The position numbers were made by a program, and so were the translations under genes. From Welwitschia mirabilis (lineage: Eukaryota): DNA of 64,000 nt. Below are positions 3,123 to 58,222 of this stretch, in pieces (position 1 is the stretch's first letter; every line of letters starts with the position of its first letter). The notes beneath the pieces are model-generated. The model did not search any database. It saw nothing but the letters and a program-made list of their open reading frames with translations, and was not told where the DNA came from. The DNA lies in the NCBI GenBank assembly GCA_051453625.1, contig JBOZIK010000001.1, forward strand, positions 9,094,070 to 9,158,069. The letters run 5' to 3'.

Positions 3123-3556
3123 TGTTGAGTATGCCTTGTATTTACTAACCTGTGACAACATTTAGGACAGTTGTTCTTTTTTTAGCTATCTTTTCTTTCT
3201 TTGAAAGAGTGGTTTGGAGGTAGAGTTAATTGTAAAAGTTGCTAGTTTTAAATGAAAACAATAGGCCATGAGTTGTAACATACCCAATAGTTCAGCCACA
3301 ACAGTCTGTAAAAGGACTACAACAGTTGTTAAATATGTAGATTGGTTTTAGGGATCTTGATTTTTAAGTGATTATACTCCATTATTGTACTCCTCAAGTT
3401 TTTCAATAGTAGAATTTTTGCTCCTTTTCCTTGTGGATGTAGGCCACAGAACCACATATTTTTTGGTGTTTGTTGGTGATCTTTTTCTTTGTTGTTCTCA
3501 TTATATTTACTTTTACTTCATTTCTACTACTTGTTGATATGTTTCTCTGGGCAATT
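3123..3556 (+). repeat. 5' LTR of the Copia element (3' end deleted)
   Basis: Aligns by eye to 5343-5786 and stops at GGGCAATT, lacking the terminal TCCTAACA. Confidence 0.9.
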
Positions 3557-5342: not shown

Positions 5343-5794
5343 TGTTGAGTATGCCTTGAATTTAGGGACCTATGACAACAACATTTAGGACAACTGTTCT
5401 TTTCTTAGCTGTCTTTTCTTTCTTGGAAAGAGTGGTTGTCAAGTAGAGTTAATTGTAAAAGTTATTGTTCTTAAATGAAAACAAGAAGCCATGAGTTGTA
5501 ACCCACCCAATAGTTTAGCCACAACAGTCTGTAAAAGGACTATAGTAGTTGTTAAATATGTAGACCAGTTTTAGGGAGCTTGATTTCTAAGTGATTATAC
5601 TGCATTCTTGTATTTCTCAAGTTTTTCAATAGGAGAATTTCTGCTCCTTTTCTTGTGGACATAGGCCACTGGCTGAACCACATAAATTCTGGTGTTTGTT
5701 GGTGATCTTTTTCTTTGTTGTTATCTCATTATATTTACTTTTACTTCAGCTTTTTTTGCTTGTTGCATTTGTTTTTCGGGGCAATTTCCTAACA
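5343..5794 (+). repeat. 3' LTR of the Copia element
   Basis: TG...CA, preceded by the PPT and followed by the TSD. Confidence 0.95.
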
Positions 5795-21099: not shown

Positions 21100-22595
21100 A
21101 TGGTCAAAGCATGAGGTAAGTGGCATATAGTTTAGGGTTTGAGGAGTGGATGAAGCTATGCCATGAGCATGATGCATCTTTTTATGCGAATGTATCAAAG
21201 TTTATAGTGGTGGGATTATCCCAACAAGCAGGTGTAATTGCATTGCATAAAGAGCACTAGGAGGAAGAAACTCTCATTTTTTAGGAATGGGAATAATACC
21301 AAGTGGAGCATTTATGGTAGTTGTTTTACCAAAGCACAAGGTTTCATAACCTCTCAAACCATGAAGTTCTATCAAGAGGGTGATAAGTTCAAGATTATGA
21401 TGGCACCAGAGCCCTACATCAACATAGAGAAAAAGTTGAAACATAGTCTTATTGGTAGAATTATTTTGTTAGGTACTCGACCGAGTATGAATGCCATAAG
21501 AAAGAAGGTGGTGCTTAGGTAGATAAGCATTTAGGAGGTTTAAACTATTACCTTGGCAAAGCTTAATGCTATTTAAGTTCATTTTAGAGGAAGACCTTAA
21601 CAATCTGATGATTAGAGATCCATGATTTTTGGTGTCCATGGCCTATCCCTTATACATTAGAAGCTTGAAGAAGATGTCATGAAGATTTTTTAGAAACTAC
21701 CTGTCTATGTGCACTTACAAGGTATTAGCTTTTCCATTTGGAATCATGCTTTCATCAAGGATCTAGTGGTGAAGTTTAGAAAGGTAATGAAGCTTGATCA
21801 AATTACCCTCAGTCTGATGCACATGGTTCTCATTAGATTTTGTGTCTAGATCCACATAAAGCTCATGAGAAAGTTCAAGAAATTTTGAGATACTACACAA
21901 ATATGAATCTAAATTCATTAAAGTAAAATATGGTAATCTTCCCACCACCTCTAACATCTACTTAGGATTCAAAAATTTAATGAATTTTTTACTTTAAACT
22001 TATAAATTACATCTATGATAGATGCAAGAGAAAATAATACCAAAAGAATCTATATTCTAAAAGCCTATGATAGGTGTAAAAAGTTTGAGCATAGAGGTGA
22101 AAACTACATATTCAAGAAAAATAGGGAAGAGGATTTTAGGTAGTCTAGTGAAAAAGGAAATTCCAACCATAGTTAAGCCATAAAATAGAATGAACGAAAA
22201 GGGTTTGAAGAAGAAAAGGATGAAAAGGCCTAGAAACATTCCCTTGCTTAAGTAGTCAGAGTTTCAAGGAAAAGCACAAGCAAGGACAAACCAACTAATA
22301 AAGCAAAGTAATAGGTTTAAGACATGAAATAGTAGCAACTCAAATTAGCTTAAATAAGATTTAAAAAAGGAATCTCCCATAAAAAAGAAGAACATAAAAG
22401 GGAAGATAACAAATCAGGATAGGAAGTAGTGCTTTGAATCAAGATACTCGCTAAAGGTGTTAAAGTTAGGAAAGAGGCAGTGAAAAATATAGTCAATGAA
22501 TCCCAATTAATCCTACTAGACATTTTCAAGGCTAATAAAAAATGTTTTAAATGAAGATCATGAGTTAAAATATTTGGGATTCCAAGGTAACCCCT
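21100..22595 (+). mobile_element. Host L1 LINE segment 1: 5' end and ORF1 (DUF4283-type)
   Basis: EKKLKHSLIGR, P*FFGVHGLSLIH, KLPVYVHLQGISFSIWN, KVMKLD, VLIRFCV; homologous to ORF1 of the minus-strand LINE at 57350-57950. Confidence 0.8.
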
Positions 22596-25500
22596 TATTA
22601 CAACTCCTAATTATTAATTAATGATAAAATAAATTTTAAATAAAGTGAATCTAATATTTATATTATTTGCATAAGCCTTGAATAATATTTAGATGCTTGG
22701 ACACATAAAGAAGAATAATAAAAGAAGGTAAAATAACTTGGACATTTGACTATTTATTGCTTTGAGGTCGACTACTTATTATAGTTATAAGTATAGATTT
22801 TTAGTAAGAGGTTGAACACCTAATGTTAATGGGTTAACTATCCACTATAGCTAAAAATAAAATTTTCAATAAAAGTAACTGTCTATTATTAGCACAGCAA
22901 CCACCTAAATATTTTTACAATACTTCATCTTCATGATGGGATCGACTAATCAATAATAGGATTGACTAGATAAGGAGTTGATCGACATTGAGGAAGAGGT
23001 TGACTACCTCACATAGGATTGTAAGTAAAAACAACTATTGAAAAGCCCACTTAACCATTAGACAAGAGCATTGAAATGCTACCTAACTATTTTAGAGGTT
23101 TCAATAGTTACATATCTTGGAATCATGACTCATAACAAGTAAAATTCATCTTCTATATAATTCATATATGATTGTACTTATTTATAAGGATTGAATCTCT
23201 CACACTTAGGCCTCATTGTATAACAACACATATTCTATGTTCTTTCTATTACTCTCTCTTTCGATTCTACATCATCTCTTATTATAACTAAATCTATTTA
23301 AGCTTGTTTAAAGGTTGAGGACTATCATAAAATCTCATTATAAGTGAAGAACTACTATAGAGTCCCATTAGAGTGTAGTTGGAGGCTACACTAGTAATAA
23401 AGGAAAAATAACACTAGTTATTATTTAAAAAAATGCTAGATTACATTGTGAAAACATAGTGTTAAATAATCAAATTGCAAAAACTACCTTAGCTATTCTA
23501 TTTACACTTTCCCTCAAGGATAACTGGTTTTAACAATTGGTATTAGATCTGTTGTATAGATCTTTTTACTATTATTTAATTATTTAACAAGTTTTCAAAG
23601 ATGGAAAGCCAATCAATCAAATGTCTTTCATAATTTGATGAAGATAACTATGAGATAGTGAAGGCTAGAATTTAAGTTTTCATTGAAGCTATAAGCTTTT
23701 ATTATTGGACCATAGTGGAGGAAGGATTCACTTCACTAATGATAATAAAAGAGATAAAAGGATAGTGGTTCAATAAACAAACCAATGGGAAAATGAAGAG
23801 AAAACTAGTGTCATGCTCAACAAAAAAGCCATGAATTCGAAATGTTGTGGACTAAACGCAAAGTACTATGAAAAGGTAAGCAACTTTACTACAGATAAAC
23901 AAATTTGGGATTATTTGTAGGTTACATATGAAGGCACTATTCAAATAAAATCCAAGGAAGTAAATAAGAAGTGTAATAATAACATGGCAACTTGAGATAG
24001 TAATAGAGATTCAAATCAAATTAAGATTTGCCCTTATAAAAAGTTATTTTTAATGGATTTTATTTCTATTCATTCTGCATCTATGTCTTTCTTAAAAGAT
24101 GACTTTAATCTATTTAATCCTTATTAGCATAAAATAGAAAATACTCTAGATCTCTTAAGTGTGAGTTATAAGAATGAAGAAACAAGTGAAGATGATAAGG
24201 AAGACTATTTTTCTAATTATAATAAAAGACATTAAGACAAGAATCTTAATACACTAATAGAAGAAGAAGGAGATGACAACTTACTTGAACAGGCCTATGA
24301 GGAATTATATCAAGAAATCAAAAAGATCTTAAAAGAAAATTTACTTCTTAAGAGACTTATTAAGGATATATAAGAGGGGAAAAAATCTACCTTGAGTTAG
24401 ATTAATTAGTATAACAGAAGTTAGCTCATAGGACTTCATGCTTTGAAAAATATGCTAATCACCTCTAAGAGCTCATCAAAGAAAATGAATAGAAATCTAA
24501 ATGTCTATTAAATAAAATTAGTAAATTATCTAATATTATTTTAAAGTTTTCTACTAAAAAAAAAAAAGCATTATGAAGAAGACGCTCTTAAAACGAGAAT
24601 CACCTTTGGACAAAAGTGGTATTTCATATTTACCTTCATTTACCTTGGTATCTGATTTATCCAACAAGCTAGCTTCATTCCCCAAGGGTAATAACTCTTA
24701 TTTAAAAAAAAAAAACATTAAAACAAGGTGATGTGTCACCTTGATTTTGTTAGTTTCAATATGGTAAAAAGAATAGAAAACATTTTATAATTCATTTTTA
24801 TAATAGATTTGGTTTTGGCAGATTATGTAATAGATATAGAAGCTACCTTATAAATTTTGATACTATGAAAGGATTTCATTTTATTCCTAAAAAAACACAT
24901 TTTAAATATAGATGAATTAGTGGTAGAGACCATGTCCCTTAGTGACATTTTCTTAAATATGTAATTTATTATTTTTATGCATTTATGTTTGAATAATTAT
25001 ACCTTTAGCTTAGTTCTAAAAGCTTCCTTTACAATGTTTTTCTAAATCGAATTTTTTTAAAAGTGGTAGTATAAGCCAAACAAAGAGAGATGTTGGATGT
25101 AAACTTAGATGATGTTTCAATTTTTTTTTAACTTGCACTTTGGTTGATGTTCTAAAATTTTTACATTGGTAGTATATATAATGTTAAACATTTTTATCAT
25201 AATCTCTCTTTTCTTGTTTATAATGTCTATGAGTGTGCTCTTTTTACTCTTTCACACTATCTTCATAGCTAATAGCATGTAACAAAGGTAAATTTTTGAA
25301 CTCACCTAAGTACTTTTATTTGCACAATTTACATCTTGTATTGGAAATCACATTGTGATTAATTAAATATTATCAGTAGTGCCTTTTCTCTTAAATCTTA
25401 TTGTAAACCTTATTCCCTAGCATTAAACCTTACAAATTTTAGACATCTCCAAATGTGATTTTCTAGGACATCTATTATTTATATTACCTTTTTATAAAAT

Positions 25501-26924
25501 ATGCACCCATTAATGGAAAGTTATTTTTAAGGTTTCAATTGTGGTACTAAACGAGGTGATCATTTCTTGATTCTCTCATATTATGTATATCAATTGGTAT
25601 CATCATGTATTCTCTAGTAATTGGTATGATATTTTTTTTGTTATTAGAAACTTGTAGTAATTATTTATTATAATGTGAATTTTATTTCCTCCATTATTGC
25701 TTGCATCTGAGGAAGAGAAAGATTATGATATTGAAATTTTCAAGATGATAAATGCCTTTATATACTATATAATATATTAGTCTTTGTTGATGATTTCATG
25801 AAATGGATAGATTTAAAATAAGCATAGACTTAGGCGAGCATCAAAGAAAGTTTATTTGTCATCAATGATAAAGAGGAAGATTGTTGCATCTTCTAATTAT
25901 CAATTAATGATAAAATAAATTTTAAATAAGTTGAATCTAATGTTTATATTATTTGTATAGGCCTTGAAGAACATTTGGATGTTTGGAAACATAAAGAAGA
26001 AAGAGAAAATAAGGAAAAATCACTTGGATAGTTAGTTTCTTATTACTTAGATGTTGACCACCTATTACAGTTATGAGTGTAAGTTTTTAATAGGGGGTCG
26101 ACTACTTACTATTGAGGGGTCAGCCGCCCAATGTCACTGAAAATGAAATTTTTGATAGGGTACGACTACATACTTTAGGGGATTAACAACTTGAATACTT
26201 TTATAATACTTTATCTTCATGATGGGATCAACCAATCATGAATAGGATCGATTAAATAAGAGGCTGACTAGAATTAAGGAAGAGGTCAACTAACTGACAT
26301 ATAGCTGTAAGTAAAAATAGCCATTAAAAAGCACACTTAATCATTGAATAAAAGCATTGGAAGGATAAAGAACTATTTTAGAGATTTCAATAGTTACATA
26401 CCTTGGAATCATAGTTCATAATAGTTAGAAGTCATCCCTTATATAATCCAAGCATTACTATAGTTCTTTATAAGAATTGAATCTCTTACTATTTGGCCTA
26501 ATTATATAAAAACACATCTTTTATATTCTTTTTATTATTCTCTACCAACTCTACATTGTCTCTTATTATAGTTGAAACTATTTAATCTTGCTTAAAGGAT
26601 AAGGACTATCGTAAATTTCCATTATAAGTGGAGAACTACCACAAAGTCCCATTGAAGTGTAATTGAATGCTACACTAGAAGTAAGGAAAATAAACTTGTT
26701 TATTACCTTATTCCTATTTATTTTTTTTGTTTAGTTAATTTCATGTGCTAAGTCATTATATCCATTATTAATTGTATAAATTATTATCATAGTTAAATTG
26801 GCATTGGCTATTGTTTATATTTGATGCTAGATTACATTATGCAAACATAATATTAAATAAAATTGCAAAAATTACTTTTTCTATCCTATTCGTCCCCTCC
26901 CCTTTAGGATAGCTGATCCTAACA
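22596..26924 (+). mobile_element. Non-autonomous Sirevirus-like LTR element carrying only a gag remnant (TR-GAG-like)
   Basis: LTRs 22596-23535 and 25882-26924; PBS TGGTATTAGATC (23538-23549); PPT AAAGAGGAAGAT before 25882; TSD CCCCT/ACCCT (4 of 5 match); gag MESQSIKCLS*FDEDNYEIVKARI..WTIVEEGF and KQIWDYL*VTYEGT; no pol motif in the 2.3-kb interior. Confidence 0.85.
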
Positions 26925-28742
26925 ACCCTAAGGCGTATATACTTAATGAATTTATTCTTAGTTATAAGTTTAATATTATTTATCTATAAGAAATAAAAAC
27001 TTAGTTTATAAGTAATTTTCTTAGATTTCAAAAATATTAGGACATACATTATATTCCTTACCTTAGTAAATAGTTAGATGCACCTAAAATTAAAATTTCC
27101 TATTGGTTTAAAATATTTGGTATAGAATATTTATGGCTTATTTGTGAATCTATATAAATCTCAGAAAGTAGGGGAATGAATAAGACTATGAGATAGGCTA
27201 CAATAGAATATCATTAGCAAAAAGTACACTATTATTGAGGACTTTAATCAAATTCATTTTAAGTAAATAAAAAAAAAACTACAAAAAGTGTAACCAATAG
27301 GATCCCTAGAAATGGATAGCTTCATCTTCAACATTAATCTTGTTAATCTTCATATTCGTAAAACCTAGCTTAACTAATTCAATAAAAGTCAAATAAAGGA
27401 TAGGATTTTTTTCTAGAATAAATATAGATTTAATGTCTACAAATTGGTTTTCTAAAATAGAATGGATGTTAAAAAAATAAGGAACATGATGCTCTAAACA
27501 TAAACCTGTTTTCTCGTCTACCAATAATGATAAATCAAAAACTAACTAATTTGCATTTGAATTGGTCATGTTACAAGAGAAGGAAGTTGAAGATTTTATC
27601 AGCAATAACTAGAAAATCTATGAAAGAAATCCAATAAAAAACCTTCAAATAAATCTTACTTACCTAAAGATATGAATCAAAACTAGAGGAAATTCTAAAG
27701 GAATAAAATAGCTTATAAGAATGTGCTAAAGCAGGAGCTAACAGGCATTCAACTCAAATGAGATAAAGTAAATATCTTCAATTAGAAGAATAATAGAAAT
27801 TGTGAAAGCTTCATTTCAATAATATACAAGAGGAAATTTAGTGATGATAAATATCTTATATCAGTTGGCTAAACGATGGTAATAAACATATCAATTATGC
27901 TTTCAACATGGTTAATCTGAGGAAGAAATCCAACAAGATCTCCAAAATAAAGGCTAATGAAGAGACTATTTAAGAAGATGTAAATTTAAATGTCTTCATA
28001 GAAAACCAATAGCAATTATAGATAGTTGAAGGACATAAAAAAATTTCTTATAACTACAAACAATTATGGAAAGGGCACAAAGTTGTTATGTCTACTACTC
28101 AGTAGGAGATTTAGAATTTAGAATGTTATAATAATGATGAAAGTATGTAGGATTCTAAGTATAGATAGATGGACAATCAAATTTTTCATAAAGTTCTAGC
28201 CCCACCTAGGCATTCATCTTGCAAGAATCTTTAACTAAGTTTTAAATACAAGTATAATTCCACATAGTTGAAATACTAATAATTATCTCATGATTCCAAA
28301 AAAAATAGAGGCACCAGAGGTTTGGGACTATAGGCCAATTGGTATGTGCAATGTCATCTACAAAATATTTTTCAAAATCTTAGTTAAAAATATTAGACTA
28401 TTTCATTTCTCAATAATAAGAGGGAATTAAGCTAGAATCTTTAAAGGCAAATGAATTCTAAACTAAGCCATTCTTAACCATGGAATTTTTCATTTCCTTT
28501 CTAAGGAAAGAATCAAGAAGTTGTATTCTCAAAATTTATATTAAGAAATAAAGTTTACAACAATATTTCTAAAAGTTTCTTGAACATGTTTTAAAAAAGA
28601 AAGACTTATAAGAAAAATTATCAAGCTTATTTTTCATATACAAAGTTTAGCAGGATTTAGCTTCAAGATCAATTAACAGCTTCATGGATGCATTTCCACA
28701 AGAAGAGGTCTAAGATATGAATACCCTTTAGCTCTCTATTTA
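26925..28742 (+). mobile_element. Host L1 LINE segment 2: ORF2 endonuclease and start of RT
   Basis: TAATG stop/start overlap at 26944-26948; IYL*EIK (LQETK), EDFNQI (GDFN), DYRPIGMCNVIYKI, RRGLRYEYPLALYL ending at the Sirevirus TSD. Confidence 0.85.
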
Positions 28743-29929
28743 TGTTAAGTTAATTTTTTACCAAGTTGATGTCAAACTAACATTTTCTGATATAGCAACA
28801 TATGTTGTATTTCTTATAGAAAATATTAATCCTTGTAGCTCAGAAGTAACTGACATTTTTCACTAGCTATGCGTGAACCTAATAAGTAATAGATCTCTTA
28901 AGGGGTCGACCGGATTCCTAAGAGTTTGACTAAACCTATACAAAAAATTGTCAAATCTTTTCTTTAAGAGGTTAACGAGATGTTTGAGGGGTCAACTGGA
29001 CCTGTGCAAACATTGTTACATCTATTTTCATAAGGGGTCAACTAGACTAAAATGTGATCGCCTGGACCTAGATATATGGAATCAACCAAATCCTAAATGA
29101 GGTTAACTTGANNNNNNNNNNNNNNNNNNNNNNNNNNNNNNNNNNNNNNNNNNNNNNNNNNNNNNNNNNNNNNNNNNNNNNNNNNNNNNNNTGGATGTTT
29201 CAAGAGGTCGAATGATCATAGTGGAAATAGAATTTCTCAGTCTATTTTCTAGCCATGCCTTCCTATTTTTAACCATTGGAATATCACATTCACTTATGAA
29301 ACCCTAAAATTCTTCTTCTATATAAACCATAGCCATCAAAATCATAAAAAACATTTTTGGTTAACCAAAATCAAAAAATTATTCTTTCACTATCACTTTT
29401 TTGGTCAATCAGGTTATACTATATGTACTTGAATGTGTAACATCATTTTTAGATAGTGTAATACTATCTTTATTGTACTTTAGATCTGGTAAATCCTATG
29501 CATCATGGCACAATATTGACACCAAAAGACATTTATTTAAAGATTAAGACTAAGACTCCAAAAGGTTGATTGTAAAGGTTATGGATTAACTTGATAAACT
29601 TGAAAAGTAAGTAATAAGGACACAAATCAGCCTTGGATAGAAGCTGATTGCGGAGAGTGGAATAGTGGATTTCTCCAATCACTATAAATATTGTGTTTGT
29701 CAACCTTCATTAGTATTTTCTAGTTTTAATTATTTTTCTTTCAATAGTATTTTGTTATTTAGTATACATAAATATTTTTACAGTATTCAATATTTTGTGA
29801 AGATAGGATTTTAATTTATTTTTAATTTATTTATTCTCTTCTTGTAGGATTCTAAATCCAACATTTGGTATTAGAGTAAGGTTGAGTCATTTGTAGATCC
29901 TAATAGATCTTAACTTCTAAACCTCAACT

Positions 29930-32900
29930 ATGAGTAATCTTTCTGATGGCCTCTCTATCGGAAGATCACCATGTTTAATGGGACCAACTATGCTTACTAA
30001 AAGGCCCAAATGAGTATCTTTCTTAGATCCTTAGATGTCGACATAAAGGAGGTAATCTACAATGGATACGTTGTGCCCACACTATTCAAAAATAATACTA
30101 ATGAAACCACTATAGTTGTTGAGAACTCTTGAGACCAATGAACCCTTACTAACAAAGATAAGGAAATCTTAGATGTCATGCTCTTAATGCTATTTTTTGT
30201 TTAATTTGTACAAATGAATTCAAGAGGACTGTAAACTATTAACATGCCAAGAAATCTTGGGATATACTTGAAATCATACACAAAGGAACATTCACTATAA
30301 AATAGACAAAGCTATAGATGCATATCTCTAAGTTTAAAGATATTTGTATGGAAGAAGAAGAGAACTGACAAGAGTTTTTTTCTAGACTAACAGACATAGT
30401 AAATTCTATGAAAAGCCTAGGTGAGAAAATAGATAAAGAAAAAGTATTACAAAACATTCTAAGATCTATTCCAAAATGCTTTAAGCCAAAGTTCAGGGCT
30501 GTTGATGAAAGCAAGAACATCAATTGAATGGCATTAGAGGAACTACAAGGTAATCTTCAAACTTATGAGTTAAAGTTTTGTAAAGATAAAAAGAAAAGTC
30601 TTACATTAAAAAGTGTGCAGAAACGGTCCAGATTTGAAAAATCAGATGAAAACCTTAGTGAAGATGAGGTTGCTCTTTTAGCAAGAAGATTCAAAAAGTT
30701 CTTCCATAGAAGAAATGAAGATGATGAACCAAGCAAGGAACCAAATAGAGATCTTTAAAACAAAGAAGAGATCCAGAAAAAGGAAAAGAGATTGGTGCTA
30801 TGCATGTAAGGAATACATACATGTTGTAAATGAATGTCTAAATAATATAAGAGATAAGAGAAAGTCCAAGGCATCGTCCTTCATTGCCATCTGGGATAAT
30901 GTAGATGGAGAAGAAGATAATATCTCAACTCAAGAGTCAAACAGAGATAGAAGACTTTCTTTCATGGTAATAGTCCCTTCCATGAAAAACATGTCATGCT
31001 CAACTAAATTAAATGATCTAAACCTTATTGAAGAAGGTCAAAAAAAGCTAGAAGATACTTGTCAAGAACTCTATTCAGAATGTGAAAAACTAACAAAATG
31101 GATTGACAAATTAAATAAGATTATGAAGGCTCTGAATAAAGAAAATAAAGAGTTGGAGACAAAGTATAGGATGGTTCAAATAGAAAACACTGAGCTAACT
31201 CAAGAGATAAAAATATTGTCTCATTTTGTAAATAAATTTTCAAATAGTTCAAGAAAATTAAAATAGATGTTTGGGATATGAAGACCAGTCCATGATAAGA
31301 AAGGTATTGGCTTTATCTTTAAAAAACCATGTAGTTAATTGAATAAGGAAATATGGCAAAATAACTTAAGTTAAAGATTACCTATCTTTTTTATGGAAAG
31401 ATAAGTAGTTTAAAATTCTTTTGCAATGTTAGAAAGATAATGTGTTTTTCAAGCTGTGTTAGTACTTTTCCATTTAAATTTATCCCAAGGGGGAGTGTAC
31501 CACAACAGTCTAAACAGACTAAGTGGATAAGCATGAATAACAAATGGAACTTGCTAGTACATGGATAGTGGATGTTCTTAGCACATGATAGGTGAAAAAT
31601 CAAGATTCCGACATTTGGATGACTTTGATAGAGGAGAAGTAACTTTTGAAGATAATGAAAAAACAAAAATTGAAGCATTGGAAGCATCATGCCTAAAATT
31701 AATGAAGTTTTATATGTGACTGATCTTAAACATAATTTGCTGAGTATTAGCTAGATTAATAAAGGTTATAAAGTTATTTTTTATAGTAAAAAATGTGAAG
31801 TTAAACACAACAAAACAAATGACGTTCTTCTTAAAGCAAATAGAATAGACAAAGTTTATAGCATTGATCAATCCTTACCTGCTTGTTATTTTTATCATAT
31901 AAATCAAGAAGAATTATAGTAGCAACGATTAGGCTGTGTAAACTATGACCATTTTAAAATCATCATTGAAAAAGGGATTATGAAAAGAATCCCTAAGATC
32001 AATATTGATAAACATGGATTGTGTGATGCTTGTCAAAAAGAAAAACAAGTTAGAACTTCTTATAAAAGTAAAAACTTAGTCTTCTCAACAATGCCACTTA
32101 AACTCATTCACATTGACTTAGTGGATCCTATTTAAACTATAAGTATAGAGGGAAAACGATAGTTTTAACTATGATGGATGGATTTTTTAGATTTAATTGA
32201 ATTGCTTTCTTAGGAAATAAAGCTAAGAGCTTCAACATTTATGTTAAAATCTATAACAAAATCCATAATAAGAAGGAATATGCTATTAAAAAAATTAGAA
32301 GCAATCATGAAGCAGAATTTGAAAATCATCTTTTTGAGAAATATTATGTGGACAATGGTGTATCACATTAGGTTTTAGCCCTAAAGACTCCACAACAAAA
32401 TGGAATTATAGAAATAAAAAATAATCAGATCCTTTAAGAGATGGCAAGAGTGATGCTAAATGATAAGGAAGTATCTAAAATGTTTTGGGCTAAAATAGTA
32501 AGTACTGCATGCTACATTATCAACAGAGTGTATCTAAGACCAGTTATAAATAAAATCCTTTATGAACTTTAGAAAGGAAGAAAGCTAAATGTATCATATT
32601 TTAAGGTCTTTGAAAGTAAATGTTTTATCTTAAAAGATAAAAAACATTTGAGGAAATTTAAGTTCAAAACTAATGAAGTAATTTTTTTAGGATGCTCAAC
32701 TAGAAGTAGCACATACTAGATATTCAATAAATGAAATATAATAGTGGAAAAATTTATAAATATTTAAATAGATAACTTTAATACTAGACTTCTTTCCTCA
32801 TGTGGTGAAAAAAATCCTACTCCAAGTATCTTCACTATAAAATAAATAACAAGTAAAAAAGGATCATCTCAAGAGGTTATATCTAAAAAGTTTAGAGAAC

Positions 32901-48434: not shown

Positions 48435-51400
48435 ATTTATTCATTATTATAATTGACTATCTACTAGACTATTAGAGAGAGGAAGAAAGTATAGGCATAA
48501 ATGTTCATGGCCTTAACTTCTGATATAATCACTTCACCAATGTCATAGTGATCTTTTCATAAGTTGATATCTAACAAATTAGGGCCATCAAAAGAGGGCT
48601 AGACAAGTTTGAAAAAGATTATAGTTTAAAATTGACTAGTCTGAAATCATAGCTCATTATAGAGGAGTGTTTAGTAAGTGATTTATAAGATGCTAGAAAT
48701 TCAAAGAGAAGATGATAAGGACAGCTACCTAGAATTCCTCATATTTAATTAGAGATATTTAGTAACTTGGTAAGATTTAATCTAGAAGTTAAAGAGCAAG
48801 TGCAATAATTAGGTTTTTCTATTTCTTTTTAGTAAAGCAAAATTCATTTTGGATAACATATTTTTTAATAGCTATAGCTAGGTAGAGCACCATAATGGGA
48901 GTGTTACCAAAGTAACTTAAGAATTCACTCAATCAGATAATTTGTAATTTCAATTATAAACGTGACAAAGTAGGTGGCATATACCATGGGATAGCTCAGA
49001 AAGACATTGTTAAAACGATATTATCTAGATATTAGAGGATTCAAGATACAAAGAGCTATACATTTTTATCTCAAATAATGATTATTAAAAAATTAGAAAT
49101 AGGGGGAAAATACCCTAAATGAAGATTATAAGGGAAAACATTTAGAATGGAAATCCAAACAAGAGGGTTCTCCTTCTAGGTATCCATAGGTAAAGGGAGG
49201 AAAAAGCTAGATACTTAAGTAACTTATAAGCTAGATAAAAGGAACATTTCCTTTTGCAAAATCATAATTGTAAATCATCATACCCTCGATGACTTGGAGA
49301 AACTTGGGATAGTAAAAGATTACTTAAAAGAACATGTGGGAACTAAGAAAAAAAACTACTAAAGCATGGGGTTTCTTCCTAGAACTAGAGATCAAGGAAT
49401 TAATAATGCGATTCTAGCTCTAGAAGAACTTATAACTAAATGAATCCTAGTGAGAGGATCTATCTTAAACTAAAGAATGATTAATGGAAAATCCTTCACT
49501 TCAAAGATTTATGTTACTTAAGTATAGAAAGGATCCTCTTGTATCTAAATCTTACAAGAACTATCTAATGGAAAAATATGGATTTATTAAGTGGCTCCTA
49601 ATAAATAATAAAATTTTAATTGTTGTTAGTCTAGGAAGAAGAGGTCTTAAAATTAAATAATATTTCAACTTTTATAAGCAAACAAATACCACAAAACATC
49701 TCTTTTAGAATTGCCCAATGTTCAAATCCATTTTGACAGCACTCAAGTGGACTATAAGTTGGAGTTACATATGTTCCAATAAAGGTAAAAATTTAAAAAT
49801 TATCACTTGGCATATCTAGATGACAAGAAACATGTAGGTGTTCAAAATAGAAGGGCTTGAAACACTTGAAATCCTTATTCACATTTGATACAAAATTTAG
49901 CTTAACCTTATGCTTTGCATGATGGATTTTCATTTCAGACATAAGACTGCGATTTTAAAATGATATCTAAAAATTTAGAACTATGGAAAAATCTACAAAT
50001 TATGGATTAATACTGGCTAAAAAACCTAAAATATTATTCTCATTGCATGTGTAGAAGCGTGTGAAGTAGAGAAGATTACTCTAAAAGAGGCATAGGATCT
50101 CCATTTTTTCTAAGTTAGTTGTGGAGTTCACAAATTTAAAAGAGGAAGGGGAGCTGATTCTACCCTCATTTATGAAATATAATAATGCTACGTTTTCAAT
50201 GAGAAATCCCCCCAAGCAAAGGAGGGTCATGTTTGAAAATCCTTACTATAGGACACATAGGATCTCATGATATAACTTACTGATAGATCTGTCATTCATA
50301 ATGAGAATTACTTCAAGCTATAAGGTCTTAATTCCATTTTCTTCTCACACTTAGAGAGAGATAGAGAATCCATATTTGCATTTTCTAGCTAAGAAGCTTA
50401 AGGTAAATGCAGTGGTTAAGCATTACAATCTTATTCAAAATCTACTCAATTTTTCAAAATCTTGAGAAGAAGGATCCTCAAGAGTAAAGGCAAGTAAATT
50501 ATGAGGCAAACCTTTAAGGTTTAGAATGATAAAGAAATGGAAGCAAAGCATTAACCTAAAGCATTTAAAGGTGAATTGTCAAAGAGGAGGTTGGGATAAA
50601 TGGTGAGATGGATAGAGGAGAAGAAGAATAAAGGAAAGTCCTCAGACTAGAATTTCAAGGGGATACACCAAGTTAAAATCAATGAGTAAGCAAGCTCAAG
50701 AGAAAATAAGGAAAGATGGGAAATTCAAGGGTTCTACCTCTCATAATAACTTAAGGTCATGGAGTAAGCAGGCTTGGGTTATGGAGGGTTTGTTAACTAA
50801 AATTTTTGAAGCCCCTACTAGGCCTAAGGTTGAGGTCACATCCTCTTTAGAACATGTTTCCAAGCCCCTTAGAGGTAGCCCTTCTTGAATCTAAAGCCCT
50901 AGCTTACATGTTAGCGATAAGGACTTGGAGAGTGCCTCCTCTATTTAATGAATAATGATGATGATAAAGATCTAAGAACAAATGATAGATACCAAAATAG
51001 TTTTTGGACTCAGTTCAAAGAAAATCTAGAAAAAGAGAAGTAGTGCATGAACTCTAGTAGCAGAGATAGCTACTTCAATACTTGGATTGATTCTAGTGAT
51101 GAGGAAGATATGGAGGATATACCAAATTATGAGAATAATGTAGGGTAATCTATGAAAGAGGAAGTGTGGGAACAAAGTGAAAAATCATAATATAATAGCT
51201 CATCCCAATCAAAAATTGGACGGAGCATTACAAGTAGCTATGGATAAGTCTAAAAGCCTCTATTGATCTTATTCTAAAATTCCATAAGCCCATAAGAAGA
51301 TTATCCTATAATCAAAGTCAAATAAAATAAACACAGATAATAAGAGGCATTGGAGGAAAAAAGAATTTTAACTAGACCAGGAAAACCTTAGGTAGCTATC

Positions 51401-51554
51401 ACCAAAGAATAATGTATCATCTCATGAACTAGGAAAAACTCATTCAATGATATAGAAGATGGTATCTTCCAATATGTTAACTTTAATGCAAATATTCAAG
51501 CTCTTTTGTTATTAGTTTTTGCCTTGTTCTTTTGTTTTTTCTCAGTTCTTCAAT
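48435..51554 (+). mobile_element. Host L1 LINE segment 3: rest of RT, C-terminal region, long 3' extension and start of 3' UTR
   Basis: The RT frame resumes directly after the TSD (PLALYL|FIIIID); RNase H-like remnants near 49800-50090; purine-rich coding-like tract 50200-51480; T-rich 3' tract. Confidence 0.75.
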
Positions 51555-51862
51555 CTTTTTTTGGAAAAAAGTATATATATTAAGCTAAAAAATATACATC
51601 AGGGGATGAAAATGCCCAAGAATAACATGACGATTAAACTATTTAGAAAAAGAGAAGTAGTTCACTAGCTGGTAAAGGGGGGACTGAGGAAAAAAATAAA
51701 ATGGGAATGAAACCATTCCTCGATGACATCCTATCTAGAAGAGAAAAATCATAGAAAAACAAAAACGTAGTACTACTAACAAACTAGAGCAAACATATCC
51801 CTTGAGACTAGAAAGTTACAAAAAGCTCAATTTTAATAAGGAACAGACCTGAGGGGGGAGGA

Positions 51863-54800
51863 TTAAAGCCCTCTATAGAATGGAAAAATGTTACTATGAT
51901 TATGGTCAAGAAGGAATATGTCCAAATCATTAGAGAGAACATCAAATGCTTAATTTATCTCCTTAAATTCTTCGAAATCTGCTGGATTTTTATCTGGATG
52001 TAGTCGTAGGGCTTTCTTCTTGTAGCTCGATTTAATGGCCTAAGGGAGGGCTCTATGAGAGAGTTCCAATGTGATGAAGGAATATCTCTTCAGCCCCTAA
52101 ATGGTTTCTATCAAAACCTCCCATCTAGCAGCATTTATTTCAATGTCCTCCTATGGTTGAAGTTGGATTTAGACTGATGAAGAATCTGAAGTGGAGTTCT
52201 ATGAAGAGCTAGGGCCCGAGGCTAGAGTAGAGGAGGTCTGGGCATGCCTACCTCACTCTTGAGAGTTTGGTGATAGTTAATCCTGAGTTAATTCTTGGGC
52301 TATGCTAGAGTTAGACTCCTCAGCTATCTTTTATTGGATCAGGGTCGAAGACATCTCCCCTGAATGACCTGGGGGTGAAGTCATCCCTCTCTTGCTAGGT
52401 CTGCCATGTGCAATGGTTTCCTCTAGAATAGGATTTCTTTTAGAAGAGGTTCTTATTTTAGAGGTTCTCCTAGGGGGAGTCTAGTGAGGATGACAATGGG
52501 GGGAGGGAAAGGGGCTCCTCTTGCCCTAATTTCTTGTGCTGCTCTCCAAAGGGCCAGGACTAAGACCAAGTACCTTAAGGAATCCTTCCATTTAAAAACT
52601 TTAATAAAAGAGAATGGCAAGTTCACCTAACATCCTAATTCAAGAGCTTTAAAAAAAGCAAAATAAATACCTGAAAGCTTAGAGAAATTCCCCAATTGGA
52701 TGAAGTAATGGTTCACGACTTCTGTACCAAGTCCCCAAGGGGATGGTAATGCCTTTCTGCTAATGTGCTAGCTTGGCAATTTAGGAACCCCATTAGGGAA
52801 GAAGTGAAGTGCTTCATTTTGTCTTCTACTTCTAAATGGAATCTGTTCTCCTTCTTTAGGGATTTCCATTAGCCTAGAGAGGGAGTCTTTGGTGATTTCT
52901 ATTAGAATTCTTTAGAAAGTGGTGTCTCCTCCTTTCCATCTTCTATAAAATGGAATGATATCAGCCCCTAGGTCTCCTCTAAGATTAAGCAGAAGGAGTT
53001 CCCATCCCACCACATACACTTTATCCCATAGAGCAAGGCATCCTTTGAAGAGGCCTAGGTTAGAAGGCTCAATTGTTGGCATGGCTCCCATCACGACTTT
53101 GATTTAGAAGTAAAGGTACATGATCCTCCTTTTTGTATTTATAGGAAAGGATGGGGAGCTTTATTAAAAATCAGATTATTTCTAATCCACCAAATCTGCC
53201 AAAATATTAAGTGGATCCTATTTAATAAATGCATATTAGGGGCATTACAGGTTTGATAGTACTTTGTTATAATGAAGATTAATTCTTTGCTTTAAAAGCA
53301 GTGATGAAATAGATGTTGTGCTATTTCTAGATTGGACTGGCAGATGGGATAATTTAAGTCCACTTGGGATACCCTTTTGAGCAATTCATCTTTAGTTAAA
53401 ATTCTCTGATGGTCTTTAACTAGAAAAAAACCTTAATTTTTTCTAGAATCTGTCACTTCCAATACTTCTTATATGTATTCTCTTTTCCATATTTCTTTAG
53501 TAGGATCTGCTTAGTTGAATCAGACTGAGAAATGTTTAAGTTAATAAGATGTTGTAAAGCTTTACTAAGGTGTTTCCTTAGGTAGAAATCCTTATGATCA
53601 ATGGTCTAATATCTGTATTTGTAATTGATTAAATCACACTAGGGATGACCTCCTTTTTGCAATCTCTTTAAAATTCTATGTGCTCTAGTAAGGATGCAAT
53701 CTTATGGTTTCTGAATCCCCAAATCCTCTGATTCTCTTGGGTGGGCAATAATCTCTCATTTGTAGAGATGAATTCGGCAGTAATTCTTTCCTCTTAACTA
53801 AATAAAATCTTTTAAGATCCTATTGATTTTTTGAATNNNNNNNNNNNNNNNNNNNNNNNNNNNNNNNNNNNNNNNNNNNNNNNNNNNNNNNNNNNNNNNN
53901 NNNNNNNNNNNNNNNNNNNNNNNNNNNNNNNNNNNNNNNNNNNNNNNNNNNNNNNNNNNNNNNNNNNNNNNNNNNNNNNNNNNNNNNNNNNNNNNNNNNN
54001 NNNNNNNNNNNNNNNNNNNNNNNNNNNNNNNNNNNNNNNNNNNNNNNNNNNNNNNNNNNNNNNNNNNNNNNNNNNNNNNNNNNNNNNNNNNNNNNNNNNN
54101 NNNNNNNNNNNNNNNNNNNNNNNNNNNNNNNNNNNNNNNNNNNNNNNNNNNNNNNNNNNNNNNNNNNNNNNNNNNNNNNNNNNNNNNNNNNNNNNNNNNN
54201 NNNNNNNNNNNNNNNNNNNNNNNNNNNNNNNNNNNNNNNNNNNNNNNNNNNNNNNNNNNNNNNNNNNNNNNNNNNNNNNNNNNNNNNNNNNNNNNNNNNN
54301 NNNNNNNNNNNNNNNNNNNNNNNNNNNNNNNNNNNNNNNNNNNNNNNNNNNNNNNNNNNNNNNNNNNNNNNNNNNNNNNNNNNNNNNNNNNNNNNNNNNN
54401 NNNNNNNNNNNNNNNNNNNNNNNNNNNNNNNNNNNNNNNNNNNNNNNNNNNNNNNNNNNNNNNNNNNNNNNNNNNNNNNNNNNNNNNNNNNNNNNNNNNN
54501 NNNNNNNNNNNNNNNNNNNNNNNNNNNNNNCAAGGACATAAGCTATGTACCGAGAAGAGGAAATTAATCAAGAGTTTATAAGAACAATTGTAGCTTTGGA
54601 TGAAAGAAAGTTATTTTTCCATGAGTTGCACCACCTTTGGATGGATTCCAAGATGTAATTCCAGGAATTGGTATTATGTCAATTTTAAAGAGGCATATCC
54701 AAGTAGATATCCTATAGGTCTCCTAATTTTGTACTCAGAATTCGGGTAATTTCTACCCCTCTAATACGTTTTCTACCAAAAATATGGATTATCGATTTTT

Positions 54801-56887
54801 TTCAATTATTATGTAACATATGTTCATAGCATTTTTTAATTAATTTTTCTTGCTGATATGATGCCCTGATCATGATGATAGTGTCATTTGCATAATGATT
54901 GTTGAAAAAGGTTTAGCCTCCAATTTTAATTCCTGTAACTCTGTTCCTTCTTAGAAAAACCTATAATACATTCATCACAAAAATAAAAAGGTATGAGGAT
55001 AGGGGGGGCCCCTTGTCTCAAGCGTCTATCTATTGAGAAGCAATTTGATCTATGGTTGTTGACCTCCATACTAAATTCGATGGAAACCTGCATGTCTAGC
55101 TAAAGATTAATAATATCTTTAGAAAATCTTATTTTCTTAAGAATACATCCTAAAACTTGTTAACTAACTAAACCATAAGCTTTAGTGTTTTCCAATTTAG
55201 CAATAAAGAGAGGAAATTTGTATTTTTAAATAGAGTGCATGATCTCATGAGTCAAGAGGATTTGGTCTTGGATATACCTAGATCAAATGAAGGCGGCTAG
55301 GTTCTCTGAAATCACATTGGAAAGAAGGGGGGTAATACAACCAACCATGATTTTTGCAAAAATTACATAAATAATATTATAAACACTTAGAGGCCTGAAA
55401 TCTTTTGGTTTACTAGCATCCATTTTTTTTGGTATAAGTACCACCCTAATTCTATTCATTTTCCTAAGAATCTTTCTATTGTGAAAGACTTCCTGCATTA
55501 CATCGTGAAGGTTATCCCTTAAGATGGAGAAGTAGGATTTGAAAAATTCAACCTGTCAGCCATCAAGATTAGGCATTTAATTATTCTTCATGGATCTGAC
55601 AGCAGATAAGATCTCTTTTTTACTCAGAGGTTTAAACAACATATAGTTATCTTCACTTGAAACTTTCTTATTTTTTGGAATTAAATCAGGGGAGATATCG
55701 TTTCATTCCCTGATTTTTTTTAAGATGGACCTGCAATTCCTTAGCTATATCTTCTTCATTTTCTGTAATTTGACCTCCTATGGATAGTCTTCTAATCTTG
55801 TTATCTAATCTATGCTAGTTGGCCTACTAGAATAAGAATATAGTACATTTATCACTCTCTTTAAGTCATTTGATCCTTGATTATTCTCTACAGTAATGTT
55901 CTTCATCAATGTTTATTTCTTAGAGATCCATTAGGCATTGATATTCTCTGTTCTATAGACTGTCCTAGTTACCTCCCTTCTTCTGCTCTGTTTGGATTCT
56001 TTTAATTTCTTCCTCAAGCTCGGTTTTTTATTTAAACCTCTTTTTAGCTTTCCTTCTCCAATCTCTTATGTGAGCCTTTAGGGTATTAAGGTCCCTATAC
56101 AAAAAATTTATGGATTGAGTTCCATCATACTGTGCCCATATTTTTTCCAATAGCACTCTAGTTTCTGTTTGGTTAATCCAATACTATTTCATATGAAATG
56201 GAGTTTTCTAGGGCAAAATCATCCCCACTCTAAGTTTGATAGGATGTTGATTTGAAGCAATTCTATTCAGACCATAAGCTTCAAATAAAAGTTTAGCTAG
56301 ATCCTTCCTAGCCAAAACTCTGTCAATATTGGACATTATCACATCTCTACCTACTCTTTTATTCGATCACATGTACTTACATCCAAAAATAGGGATGTCT
56401 ATGAGGGAGTGTCTTGCCAAAAAATCTTTTAGTATTGAGCTACCTCTAGAATTCCAGTTATCACCTTCTGATTTTTGCAATGATGAAGACATTGATTGAA
56501 GTCACCCAAGATGAGCCATTTAGATTTATCTACTATTGTCCTCTGAGCTTCTTCCAAGATAAAGGCCTTGTTTTGATTATGTTGGGAACTATAAAGATTC
56601 ATGATATCTAGCCTTCTTTTTTAAGGAGAACTATGATGTGGTTCTTGCTAGTGTGAATCAGATCTACCTCTCTTTTGGTAGAAATCATAATGCCACTAGA
56701 GTTGCCTTGGGCTGTAATGATGAAGGAAATCCATTACTACTCTAAATTCATTTTTCCCATATCATTTTTGGTCTTTGTTTCCTGTAAGCAAATTAAATCA
56801 ATATTATACTAACTGATCATATTTCATAGGGTTTTTTTCCTTATAGGAGAACCCTAATTTTCTACAATTCCATATGAGATAATTTAT
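51863..56887 (-). pseudogene. LINE ORF2 (APE endonuclease, RT, C-terminal region) plus 3' extension
   Basis: NYLIWNCRKLG, LICLQETK, WLILGDFNQ, LIPKKMDASKPKDFRPLSVYNIIY, LRQGAPLSSYLF, HYANDT, IFWQIWWIRNNLIFN (53165-53210); decayed TAATG overlap (TAATA) at 56889-56885. Frame continuity into the extension is inferred. Confidence 0.85.
51902..52084 (-). pseudogene. DnaJ/Hsp40 J-domain inside the LINE
   Basis: Single frame YSFITLELSHRALP*AIKSSYKKKALRLHPDKNPADFEEFKEIN*AFDVLSNDLDIFLLDH; HPD at 52000-51992; all four helices fit the J-domain consensus. Confidence 0.92.
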
Positions 56888-58000
56888 TAGGGGTGTTTTC
56901 ACCCCTTTTTGAGTGCTTAACCTCCCCTTAAGGTATCTTTAATGGTCTTTTGGGAATTATTTACAACATTATTTATCATTTCTCATTCTTAGAGAGTCCT
57001 ATTATTGGGCCTTTCCTTCGTTTGAGTTTCTACTTTGTTAGGTTCATCATCATTCAGAGGTTTTTAGGTGTTATAAGAGGTTGAAAGAGCTTATTCTCTA
57101 GTTTTGGTACTCCTTTTTTTTTGCTTTTCTTAGGAAAAATTGTAATACTTTTTCTAGTTTGTTCCTTTGTTTACTTATGTCAGCATATATTTTGATTGTG
57201 ACTAGTTTTCTCACAAAAAGTACAGGTTTCTTTTGGCTTTTCTTTAATATCAATCAATATTTTTTGACGTTCTTCTCTTAGATTATCCAAGCTTCCAAAA
57301 TGTGAACATTTCTTTTCAAGTGGAGCACATCTTTCTAGAGAGATGTCCTAATTTTTCACATAGGGACCAGAAGACTCTCGTAGGTAATGTTAAGTTCACA
57401 AATATTCCATTTAGATCTAAACTTTATAGATTGGATCTCCTTAGTATCCTTTAGGCTCATCTAGACACAAAATCTGGCCAACACTAATCTTTTCTATTTA
57501 ATAGTAATCATGTTGAGTTTGATGAGTTCACTAAACTGAGCTACCATTTTTCTTAAAAGATCTTCATTGCAAAACTCCAATGGAAACTTGTGGATTTAGA
57601 TCCAAATTAGAAGTCTCTTAAATAGATTAGGATCCGATTGCATCTCTAGTGTTTATTTGCCTAGGGCAAGGCCACGAACCCTAAAAAACCAACGTCCTCT
57701 TGTGATTATTTCATCCCGATCTCATTTGTTATCTAGTTGAAATAACACCAACCCTTCAAGCATTGCAATAACATCAACTTTACTAACTCGTGTCCATTTA
57801 GTAGCAACCTATTCACAGATCCGATCCAACCTTGATTAAGAACTGAAAGAGGCAAACTTTCTAATTAGACTGTATTTGAGTTTCTTCTCAATCTTACTAT
57901 AGGCATCTTCATTGATGTCCAATATAAGGGATTTTTCTTCCCTAAAGAACTAAGTCTTTTTCATATTGGGGCCAAACCCCTCGAAAAAAATCCTAAACAT
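56887..58000 (-). pseudogene. LINE ORF1 (DUF4283-type)
   Basis: EKKLKYSLIRKF, RGRWFFRVRGLAL, LLIWI*IHKFPLEFCNEDLL, LARFCV; start approximate. Confidence 0.85.
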
Positions 58001-58222
58001 AGATCAAAACTACTAAATGAAAAAAATCCCACAACTTACCCATAGAATGACTGTTTGATGACTAAAATCACCCCTGCATTTTGTGACCATGGACCAAAAC
58101 TGTCCCCACCAATTCGTGGCCCTCCAAGACTTGCTCCCTCATATGCTCTAGATCCGTCAAAACTTAGCAGAGCTTTAAAACCCTAGCAAATCTCCTCAAC
58201 TTAGCATGATCAGTTCTTCAAT

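Follow-up and report, generated by a model that had tools for sequence, protein, structure and literature searches.

A predicted J-domain in the 3' extension of a high-copy LINE family

Accessory domains in related elements

LINEs are mostly described as elements with two ORFs, and the gain of a further domain (RNase H, helicase, methyltransferase or esterase) is uncommon enough that each case tends to be published singly. In plants, L1-clade LINEs that gained a C-terminal RNase H domain were reportedly described by Smyshlyaev et al. in 2013. J-domains are known in DNA viruses, where the polyomavirus T antigens are regulators with an N-terminal J-domain of demonstrated function, and the hepadnaviral RT is said to need chaperone recruitment. 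Insect R1 LINEs, as outlined in PMC4686597, carry a C-terminal SF1 helicase domain fused within ORF2. The LTR retrotransposons Athila and Tekay carry additional ORFs (aORFs), including Transposase_32 (PF20167) / Athila ORF1 (PF03078) (PMC11728184); the sections of that article at hand report no J-domain in plant LTR-retrotransposon aORFs. In Arabidopsis, the MBD5/6 methyl-reader silencing complex has a J-domain protein, SILENZIO, and the contact of its HPD with Hsp70 is described as acting at methylated transposons (PMC10651127). At the level of titles and abstracts, we found no LINE-borne J-domain or Hsp70 co-chaperone in print; the Welwitschia transposable element tables (PMC8275611) may list the family.

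The LINE described here lies in a window of 64 kb, the whole stretch of DNA that was analysed; the host genome is very GC-poor and probably that of a gnetophyte. Like the RNase H plant L1s, the LINE has an ORF1 with DUF4283 and CCHC, an ORF2 (here with weak traces of APE, RT and zf-RVT), a poly(A) and an acquired 3' module that is a family trait; unlike theirs, its module gives no RNase H match and seems to make up an ORF3 of its own, with a J-domain as the last part. With insect R1 LINEs it shares the gain of a foreign protein domain downstream of the RT, but what was gained here, in a genome of gymnosperm type, is a co-chaperone domain that probably has an ORF to itself. As with the aORFs of Athila and Tekay, we are dealing with a family-wide accessory ORF of a retroelement, and these aORFs are the nearest language-model leads (0.86 to 0.88) for the N-terminal domain of ORF3 (domain X); the present element is however non-LTR, and the Pfam models of those families give no match. 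As in the polyomaviruses, a selfish element would encode an HPD J-domain with which to commandeer the Hsp70 of its host, a role that is here predicted from sequence; in the LINE, moreover, the J-domain is C-terminal. SILENZIO is likewise a plant J-domain protein, but a host silencing factor, and it is likened to the LINE product by description.

The element and its domains

The element is a 6.65-kb LINE on the minus strand, lying between exact copies of a target site duplication (TSD) and ending in a short poly(A) at its 3' end. Its parts are the following, in window coordinates.

58210-58222, TSD on the 5' side of the element, exact 13-mer
57464-57823, minus strand, ORF1 DUF4283, decayed (Pfam PF14111, E 1.2e-15)
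57183-57224, minus strand, ORF1 zinc knuckle CX2CX4HX4C (CCHC), read directly from ORF 57180-57347
56659-56853, minus strand, Exo_endo_phos trace, APE-type endonuclease (PF03372, E 0.015, 15.5 bits for a cut-off of 24.5)
54900-55555, minus strand, reverse transcriptase N-terminal motifs, frameshifted (RT-like motifs legible in the translated frames)
53283-53411, minus strand, ORF2 zf-RVT Cys/His region (PF13966, E 0.0015, 19.6 bits for a cut-off of 27.5)
53104-53160, minus strand, ORF2 tail, ending with TAA 53104-53106 in the frame anchored at 53298
52620-53091, minus strand, putative ORF3 start ATG 53089-53091 and domain X, about 160 aa (HMMER homologues; 3 stops in 160 codons)
52073-52619, minus strand, S/P/T-rich linker (frames and stop densities)
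51863-52072, minus strand, predicted C-terminal J-domain (PF00226), the frame's stop being at 51863-51865
51556-51862, minus strand, 3' UTR and residual poly(A) (sequence; contig breaks at 51556)
51542-51554, TSD on the 3' side of the element, exact 13-mer

The 13-bp TSD, TCAGTTCTTCAAT, has two exact occurrences in the window, solely at the two ends of the element, and seven A on the element strand at 51556-51562 are the residue of the poly(A). The initial annotation had indeed described a TSD-bounded LINE with a poly(A), and the motifs it quoted, J-domain text included, were all found on the minus strand. Because TSD and poly(A) enclose the unit, retrotransposition mobilised it whole, J-domain included, in one event. 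No second DNA copy of the LINE is present within the 64-kb window.

ORF1 has both the DUF4283 domain (residues 129 to 248 of the frame starting at 58207) and the CCHC knuckle, as in L1-type plant LINEs; the ORF piece 57180-57347, which holds the knuckle, has no Pfam match. In ORF2, RVT_1 is matched in one piece, at 55283-55555 (E 0.043, under the Pfam cut-off), and an alignment of 243 aa with a second RT of the window shows 27% identity. A run of N at 53837-54530 hides the RT core. The motif WQIWWIRN lies at about 53179-53202, on the minus strand. A query made of the ORF2 tail retrieved no homologue at E <= 0.001 among longer proteins.

The J-domain was searched as a 77-residue read-through of 51890-52120, with stops written as X. 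Pfam DnaJ (PF00226) matches it with an E-value of 4.6e-13 and 49.5 bits, above the curated cut-off of 27.8, over query residues 17 to 65 (51926-52072) and profile positions 5 to 56 of 63; the frame of the whole element also matches PF00226 (E 5.3e-11). The HPD motif is intact at 51992-52000, within LHPDKNP. Thirty-two solved J-domain sequences match at E <= 0.001, the best being the J-domains of dnj-12, DNAJA1 and DNAJB1 (E 2.9e-09 to 1e-08); the alignments with dnj-12 and DNAJA1 span helix II, HPD and helix III, with HPD aligned to HPD. Two stops interrupt the Pfam-matched domain, at 52040-52042 and 51950-51952, and a third lies just upstream (52097-52099). Judged by these alignments, the J-domain proposed in the initial annotation is real and canonical.

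Domain X stands out by its reading frame, which has 3 stops in 160 codons, as compared with 9 and 18 in the remaining frames (stop densities of 0.019 versus 0.056 and 0.113). HMMER found three homologues, P0003 (E 1.5e-30), P0004 (9.2e-09) and P0005 (4.7e-05), of which one is an ORF in a Welwitschia transcript, one a protein of Ginkgo and one a protein without a name. Each begins within three alignment columns of the window's Met at 53091. Domain X is therefore, by homology of its predicted product, related to a stand-alone gymnosperm domain that begins at a common Met. A query of domain X gave no homologue at E <= 0.001 among proteins of near length. The one metagenome locus (L001) retrieved with the P0003 query was discarded as a chance match, as it is a high-GC bacterial contig with a GH15 glycosidase and an alanine dehydrogenase.

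An RNase H-like stretch had been proposed within this region (LSGIYFAFFKALELG, around 52633-52677), and this did not hold: in none of the three sense frames does an RNase H family match at E <= 0.1, and a 217-aa stretch compared with the RNase H family models gave none at E <= 1. Domain X and its three homologues match no Pfam family at E <= 1, the Transposase_32 and Athila ORF1 models included. The language model leads to Transposase_32 (PF20167) and Athila ORF1 (PF03078) score 0.86 to 0.88, below the mark of 0.9, and domain X is possibly akin to these families. An AlphaFold2 model of P0005, built on a four-row alignment, was too poor to be used (mean pLDDT 40.9, pTM 0.31).

Occurrence of the extension in other copies

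Contigs from two DNA runs, X1 and X5 (two organism labels), were placed at 80% likeness on 2.5 kb of the window, which gave 12,065 pieces for X1 and 13,308 for X5. The depths given below are sums of contig word depths, not copy numbers, and a small number of collapsed contigs may make up most of a bin. At 51300-51384, in the flank, the depth is 7.1 (X1) and 3.4 (X5), whereas the 18 bins of the extension (51555-53084) range from 438 to 7,089 (X1) and from 631 to 6,495 (X5), and the nine bins of the ORF2 tail from 1,698 to 6,756 (X1) and from 2,906 to 8,001 (X5). The extension is thus hundreds-fold deeper than the flank and near the depth of the ORF2 tail, though somewhat lower. In the RNA runs, only 85 and 65 reads were placed, and none was at least 99% alike.

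Likeness is lost exactly at 51556 in 52 contigs of X1 and 46 of X5. Beyond this point, the contigs continue into mutually unlike sequences that are A-rich on the element strand (loose-end agreement 0.47). Among the 12 best-supported DNA positions of this kind, none forms a cluster of loose ends near 53090-53140, and two of the 16 pieces listed (records 13 and 14 of X5) connect the ORF3 start with the zf-RVT region. The 1.5-kb extension, J-domain included, is a trait of a high-copy family with a shared 3' end, and in other copies it is contiguous with the ORF2 tail. The attribution of the J-domain to a LINE family in the initial annotation therefore stands, since the extension is not confined to a single copy. 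For the same reason, a one-off L1 3' transduction was rejected. No A-run longer than five, as a remnant of a progenitor A-tail, is present at 53100-53170.

Depth is uneven along the extension. The two bins of the J-domain are its deepest (7,089 and 5,587 in X1; 4,108 and 6,495 in X5), with neighbours at about 2,000 to 2,650, and this suggests that the J-domain may be more conserved among copies than the rest of the extension. Only the zf-RVT Cys/His bin equals them; that region falls in one of the two deepest contig-depth bins.

Reading frames, origin and possible function

The question arises as to what the 3' third of this family is. Our preferred reading, to which we give a probability of roughly 0.55, is that the present copy is a dead, near-full-length member of a high-copy family of L1-type plant LINEs, whose 3' third holds neither UTR nor RNase H but a third gene, ORF3. 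An ancestor of the family would have captured a complete intronless CDS, running from an N-terminal domain through an S/P-rich linker to a C-terminal J-domain, by template switch or by read-through onto a processed transcript. The 3' UTR and poly(A) of the captured gene would then have become the new 3' end of the LINE, a change that a poly(A)-primed L1 should tolerate. Transition-type decay would later have inactivated the present copy.

A less favourable reading of the same segment, which we regard as rather unlikely, is that a master LINE, through 3' transduction or template switching, acquired part of a gene or pseudogene (domain X plus J-domain), which served as 3' UTR only; its spread would be owed to a prolific master, and the segment would never have been translated for the element's benefit. 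The linker agrees with this, having stops in all frames at a near-random density (0.055 to 0.091), so that no frame is clearly open. Likewise, the J-domain and domain X are out of frame in this copy, with at least one -1 frame change between them. Three gapless contig pieces (52140-52454, 52166-52498 and 51816-52144) keep the frame relation of this copy over 51816-52498, and because of this the frame break upstream of 52498 could be family-wide. No canonical -1 slippery heptamer was seen by eye at the T/A run around 52589-52600. The GC content also fits a foreign sequence, at 0.41 to 0.45 in the extension (0.43 to 0.45 in the linker) versus 0.31 to 0.32 in the ORF2 tail and LINE body. No intact ORF3 was seen; the present copy has about 14 stops over roughly 408 codons. 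It also counts against our preferred reading that no protein joining a LINE ORF2 to DnaJ was found in the searched protein collections, where a query of linker plus J-domain gave no homologue at E <= 0.001.

Several observations nevertheless speak against a segment that was never translated. Two stops of this copy are sense codons in the majority of copies, each in the frame of the domain next to it: TAA 51950-51952 becomes CAA (depth 13,795 of 15,384), and TAA 52453-52455 becomes GAA (3,661 of 3,899). The former is the Q that the initial annotation had guessed at one of the two J-domain stops (position 51952). Depth within the extension peaks at the J-domain core, at a level like that of the zf-RVT bin, so that this core is probably its most conserved stretch, and the HPD and the residues of helices II and III still reach 49.5 bits despite heavy decay. 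Finally, a complete CDS from its native Met, lying 12 nt past the ORF2 stop and in frame with it, would be an odd coincidence. Two further arguments on the frames were dropped. The balance of silent and replacement changes among 39 majority differences is no test of the linker frame, as changes in a dead copy are mostly neutral and post-insertion; and the lack of majority indels is no proof of a family-wide frame break, as contigs are soft-clipped at the indels at 53161 and 53415.

Whether the third gene is separate from ORF2 depends on the ORF2 tail. At 53161, the loose ends of 31 (X1) and 43 (X5) contigs, aligned by eye, have a consensus identical to the next 30 bases of the window plus one extra base. 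This points to a net deletion of 1 nt within 53149-53160 that is private to the present copy. Once it is corrected, ORF2 appears to stop 12 nt ahead of the ATG at 53089-53091. A UGAUG stop-start overlap at 53089-53093 was abandoned, since ORF2 is not in that frame given the 1-nt deletion. Because ORF2 appears to stop before this ATG, we lean towards a separate ORF3 that begins with a Met of its own (domain X, S/P-rich linker and C-terminal J-domain), rather than a fusion to ORF2. The initial annotation had left the choice between the two; the ORF3 alternative is strengthened, as the homologues share the Met and the ORF2 stop precedes it by 12 nt, and the fusion is now less favoured.

In the fused version, which we hold to be distinctly unlikely, TAA 53104-53106 would be private to this copy, and active elements would have made a polyprotein of ORF2, domain X and J-domain. 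ORF2 and domain X do share a frame once the deletion is corrected, with this single TAA between them, and CAA to TAA takes a single C-to-T transition; transitions account for 628 of the 807 places that vary in X1. However, all three homologues of domain X start at a Met aligned with 53091, and an end about 19 residues after the RN motif is usual for a plant L1 ORF2. Lastly, it is highly improbable that the extension is a piece of another high-copy element (an LTR-retrotransposon additional ORF or a retrogene family) whose depth we recorded and which only this LINE copy carries: the weak language-model leads from domain X to Transposase_32 and Athila ORF1, which are LTR-retrotransposon additional-ORF domains according to PMC11728184, and the somewhat shallower extension would fit, but about 50 contigs per run end at the poly(A) site into unlike flanks, as expected of poly(A) retroposition and not of an internal LTR-element segment, there is neither a depth step at 53090-53160 nor a well-supported loose-end cluster there, and in two of the contigs listed the ORF3 start is connected with zf-RVT.

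Returning to the separate third gene, 12 nt separate its ATG from the ORF2 stop, with no change of frame, and we therefore propose that ORF3 would be translated from the LINE RNA by reinitiation or stop read-through. Its N-terminal domain would bind a client, either the RNP of the LINE itself or some complex of the host, and the HPD loop of the J-domain would trigger ATP hydrolysis in host Hsp70 on the bound client, which would be folded, assembled, remodelled or disassembled as a result. Recruitment of Hsp70 to the benefit of the LINE is what we infer. As a speculation, the LINE J-domain might be a decoy or antagonist of SILENZIO-type silencing. A fuller form of this idea, in which ORF3 would be a LINE-encoded counter-silencing factor, with domain X docking on a chromatin or methyl-reader assembly and the J-domain hijacking or out-competing the SILENZIO-type partnership with Hsp70, is a long shot.

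The accessory itself is real, family-wide and apparently undescribed, with a function that is so far predicted. If our reading is correct, it would be the first LINE-borne Hsp70 co-chaperone found in print. It would make testable whether retrotransposon RNPs need dedicated chaperone recruitment, and also whether transposons fight plant silencing that depends on J-proteins and Hsp70, of the kind described in PMC10651127. If the lead to Athila and Transposase_32 holds, a retroelement accessory domain would have crossed from LTR to non-LTR elements. And if ORF3 did act in counter-silencing, this LINE family would have proliferated with it in an exceptionally heavily methylated, deamination-eroded genome.

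The element and its J-domain

The element on the minus strand at 51555-58209 is flanked by an exact 13-bp direct repeat, absent elsewhere in the 64-kb window, and its sequence ends in seven A at the 3' terminus. Its three sense frames, with X in place of stops, were searched against Pfam:

DUF4283, minus strand: E 1.2e-15 (sense-frame translation)
Exo_endo_phos, minus strand: weak match under the Pfam threshold, E 0.015
RVT_1, minus strand: weak match under the Pfam threshold, E 0.043, a single 91-residue piece, the RT core being masked by N (53837-54530)
zf-RVT, minus strand: weak match under the Pfam threshold, E 0.0015
DnaJ, minus strand: E 5.3e-11 (sense-frame translation)

A CX2CX4HX4C knuckle was read in the ORF downstream of DUF4283. 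With all features combined, the element is, judging from its sequence, a plant LINE of the L1 type, near full length and decayed.

The J-domain that the initial annotation had placed at the 3' end was borne out by a PF00226 scan: the 77-residue read-through of 51890-52120 scored 49.5 bits (cut-off 27.8; E 4.6e-13) over profile positions 5 to 56 of 63, with an intact HPD at 51992-52000. At E <= 0.001, 32 distinct J-domain sequences of solved structure were matched, led by C. elegans dnj-12 (2.9e-09), human DNAJA1 (3.6e-09) and DNAJB1 (1e-08), and the alignment to these three spans helix II, HPD and helix III. Because its frame ends at a stop (51863-51865) about ten codons past the domain, the J-domain is C-terminal.

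A family with a common 3' end

Matches to 51542-53300 were found in public runs (thirteen rows, four studies, two organism labels; all DNA contigs). We aligned two DNA runs (X1 and X5) and two RNA runs (X14 and X17) to 51300-53830 at 80% likeness, clear of the N run. The contig pieces placed, 12065 in X1 and 13308 in X5, were mostly less than 95% alike, with 324, 1142, 4002 and 6597 (X1) and 268, 1327, 4636 and 7077 (X5) in four likeness classes. Summed word depth, which for contigs is not equal to copy number, was 7.1 (X1) and 3.4 (X5) in the unique flank bin 51300-51384, 438-7089 and 631-6495 in the extension (18 bins, 51555-53084, 3' of the ORF2 tail), and 1698-6756 and 2906-8001 in nine bins of the ORF2 tail; neither run had a depth step at the ORF2/extension border. 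Likeness is lost exactly at 51556 in 52 (X1) and 46 (X5) contigs, beyond which they are mutually unlike (agreement 0.47) and A-rich on the element strand, a pattern expected of independent insertions that each end in poly(A). None of the 12 best-supported DNA clusters of loose ends lies at 53090-53140, and among 16 pieces listed, two X5 records join the ORF3 start to the zf-RVT region. Within the limits of the depth data and of the rows listed, which are a small share beside 25678 further pieces and 3004 further loose ends, the extension, as the contigs indicate, belongs to an old and large family whose copies share their 3' end.

Directly beyond the 3' repeat, 51385-51554 is moderately repeated (depth 37-154, against 3-7 farther out), and position 51427 is C in most contigs and A in the window; this points to an older repeat that may have been the insertion target of the LINE. 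A small number of RNA reads, from X14 and X17, match only 51944-51991 (48 bases of the J-domain), with identical loose ends on both sides, an agreement of 0.86-1.0, and an upstream side about 70% like the window by eye. They look like a single expressed and diverged copy of the family, one that has an indel at its HPD codons.

Elsewhere, another decayed LINE-like element lies at 21300-29100 (+); tblastn with the element frames matched 21367-21861 (ORF1-like part) and 28032-28745 (RT, 27% identity, 243 aa), whereas neither the J-domain nor the region upstream of it, domain X, had a match there. A further RT-like trace, at 2737-3138 (+), is 28% identical across 135 aa to the RT frame of the element. 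A Copia-type gag (Retrotran_gag_2) lies at 30180-30570 (+; E 8.5e-16), and a second, weaker trace near 23800 (E 0.0069). Adjoining the gag at 30180-30570, 30682-31266 is the sole ORF of 120 aa or more that is clear of the twelve N runs (3540 bases in total, e.g. 3989-4773, 13180-13803). Apart from it and the outer part of 3804-5228, ORFs of that length are N-run artefacts, so the window is without an intact gene.

Reading frames and domain X

The ORF2 frame anchored at 53300 continues through WQIWWIRN, the RN motif. Contigs are soft-clipped at 53161 (31 in X1, 43 in X5), and their clipped consensus is the window's next 30 bases plus one extra base within 53149-53160 (aligned by eye), where the window copy would carry a private 1-base deletion. 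Once this is allowed for, ORF2 would lie in the frame anchored at 53298; its corrected stop is TAA 53104-53106, about 19 codons past the RN motif. Twelve bases downstream, in the same frame, is the ATG of domain X, the putative N-terminal domain of an ORF3; across its 160 codons this frame has 3 stops, versus 9 and 18 in the others. The J-domain is in the -1 frame relative to domain X, the change falling somewhere within about 52600-52100, which is S/P/T-rich and has no distinct frame. Three gapless contig pieces keep the frame relation of the window copy across 51816-52498, so that, if only one break exists, it would be placed upstream of 52498, the alternative being a family-wide break.

What had been taken for an RNase H-like stretch, within the 1.2 kb that separate zf-RVT from the J-domain, is not RNase H: no such Pfam family scored in any sense frame or in P0002, a 217-residue query covering domain X. 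Exhaustive HMMER comparison of P0002 with 1.84 billion representatives found three proteins, none with a Pfam family, all starting at most three alignment columns from the Met encoded at 53089-53091:

91-aa ORF, Welwitschia mirabilis transcriptome: 63% identity, E 1.5e-30
Gb_10421, Ginkgo: two domain copies, E 9.2e-09
One unnamed Logan protein: E 4.7e-05

Language-model look-ups placed two homologues with Transposase_32 (PF20167) and Athila ORF1 (PF03078) clusters at 0.86-0.88, under the mark of 0.9, and this kinship is a lead only; in sunflower, PF20167 is described for an Athila element, in an additional ORF on its 3' side (PMC11728184). The predicted structure was too poor for use (pLDDT 40.9).

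Past coding and origin of the extension

We favor, with a probability of about 0.55, a scenario in which a LINE family captured a complete intronless gene (domain X, linker and J-domain, 3' UTR included) that came to serve as its ORF3. In X1, 628 of 807 variant places are transitions, consistent with the methyl-cytosine deamination described for the Welwitschia genome, of 29% GC (PMC8275611); GC in the window is 0.20-0.41. Most copies have CAA rather than TAA at 51952 in the J-domain frame (depth 13795/15384), and GAA rather than TAA at 52455 in the frame of the adjoining domain (3661/3899). Depth in the J-domain bins is two to three times that of the neighbouring bins and equals that of the zf-RVT motif bin, which suggests that more copies remain within 80% likeness there. 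These majority sense codons and this depth are suggestive of selection, not proof of it. Passive hitchhiking, without the segment ever being translated, is a possible but distinctly less probable account. Unlikelier still is an in-frame ORF2 fusion, a variant of the ORF3 reading, in which the frame is shared and the intervening TAA would be private to this copy. The initial annotation had named a J-domain confined to this copy as an observation that would refute its reading; the runs show otherwise, the extension being at high depth in both DNA runs. A one-off chimera on another repeat is very improbable.

In the literature listings and the passages cited, no J-domain encoded by a LINE or other retrotransposon is described. 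Among the repeated sequences of a sunflower database of repeats, 'DNAJ-like protein' ranks second by frequency of the gene families (18 sequences; PMC3852528), and repeats may carry J-domain sequences in other plants too. SILENZIO, the J-protein of the plant MBD5/6 complex (PMC10651127), prompts an analogy under which ORF3 might have had an anti-silencing role, which we consider very improbable. Under the capture scenario, the ORF3 protein would recruit Hsp70 of the host to the binding partner of domain X.
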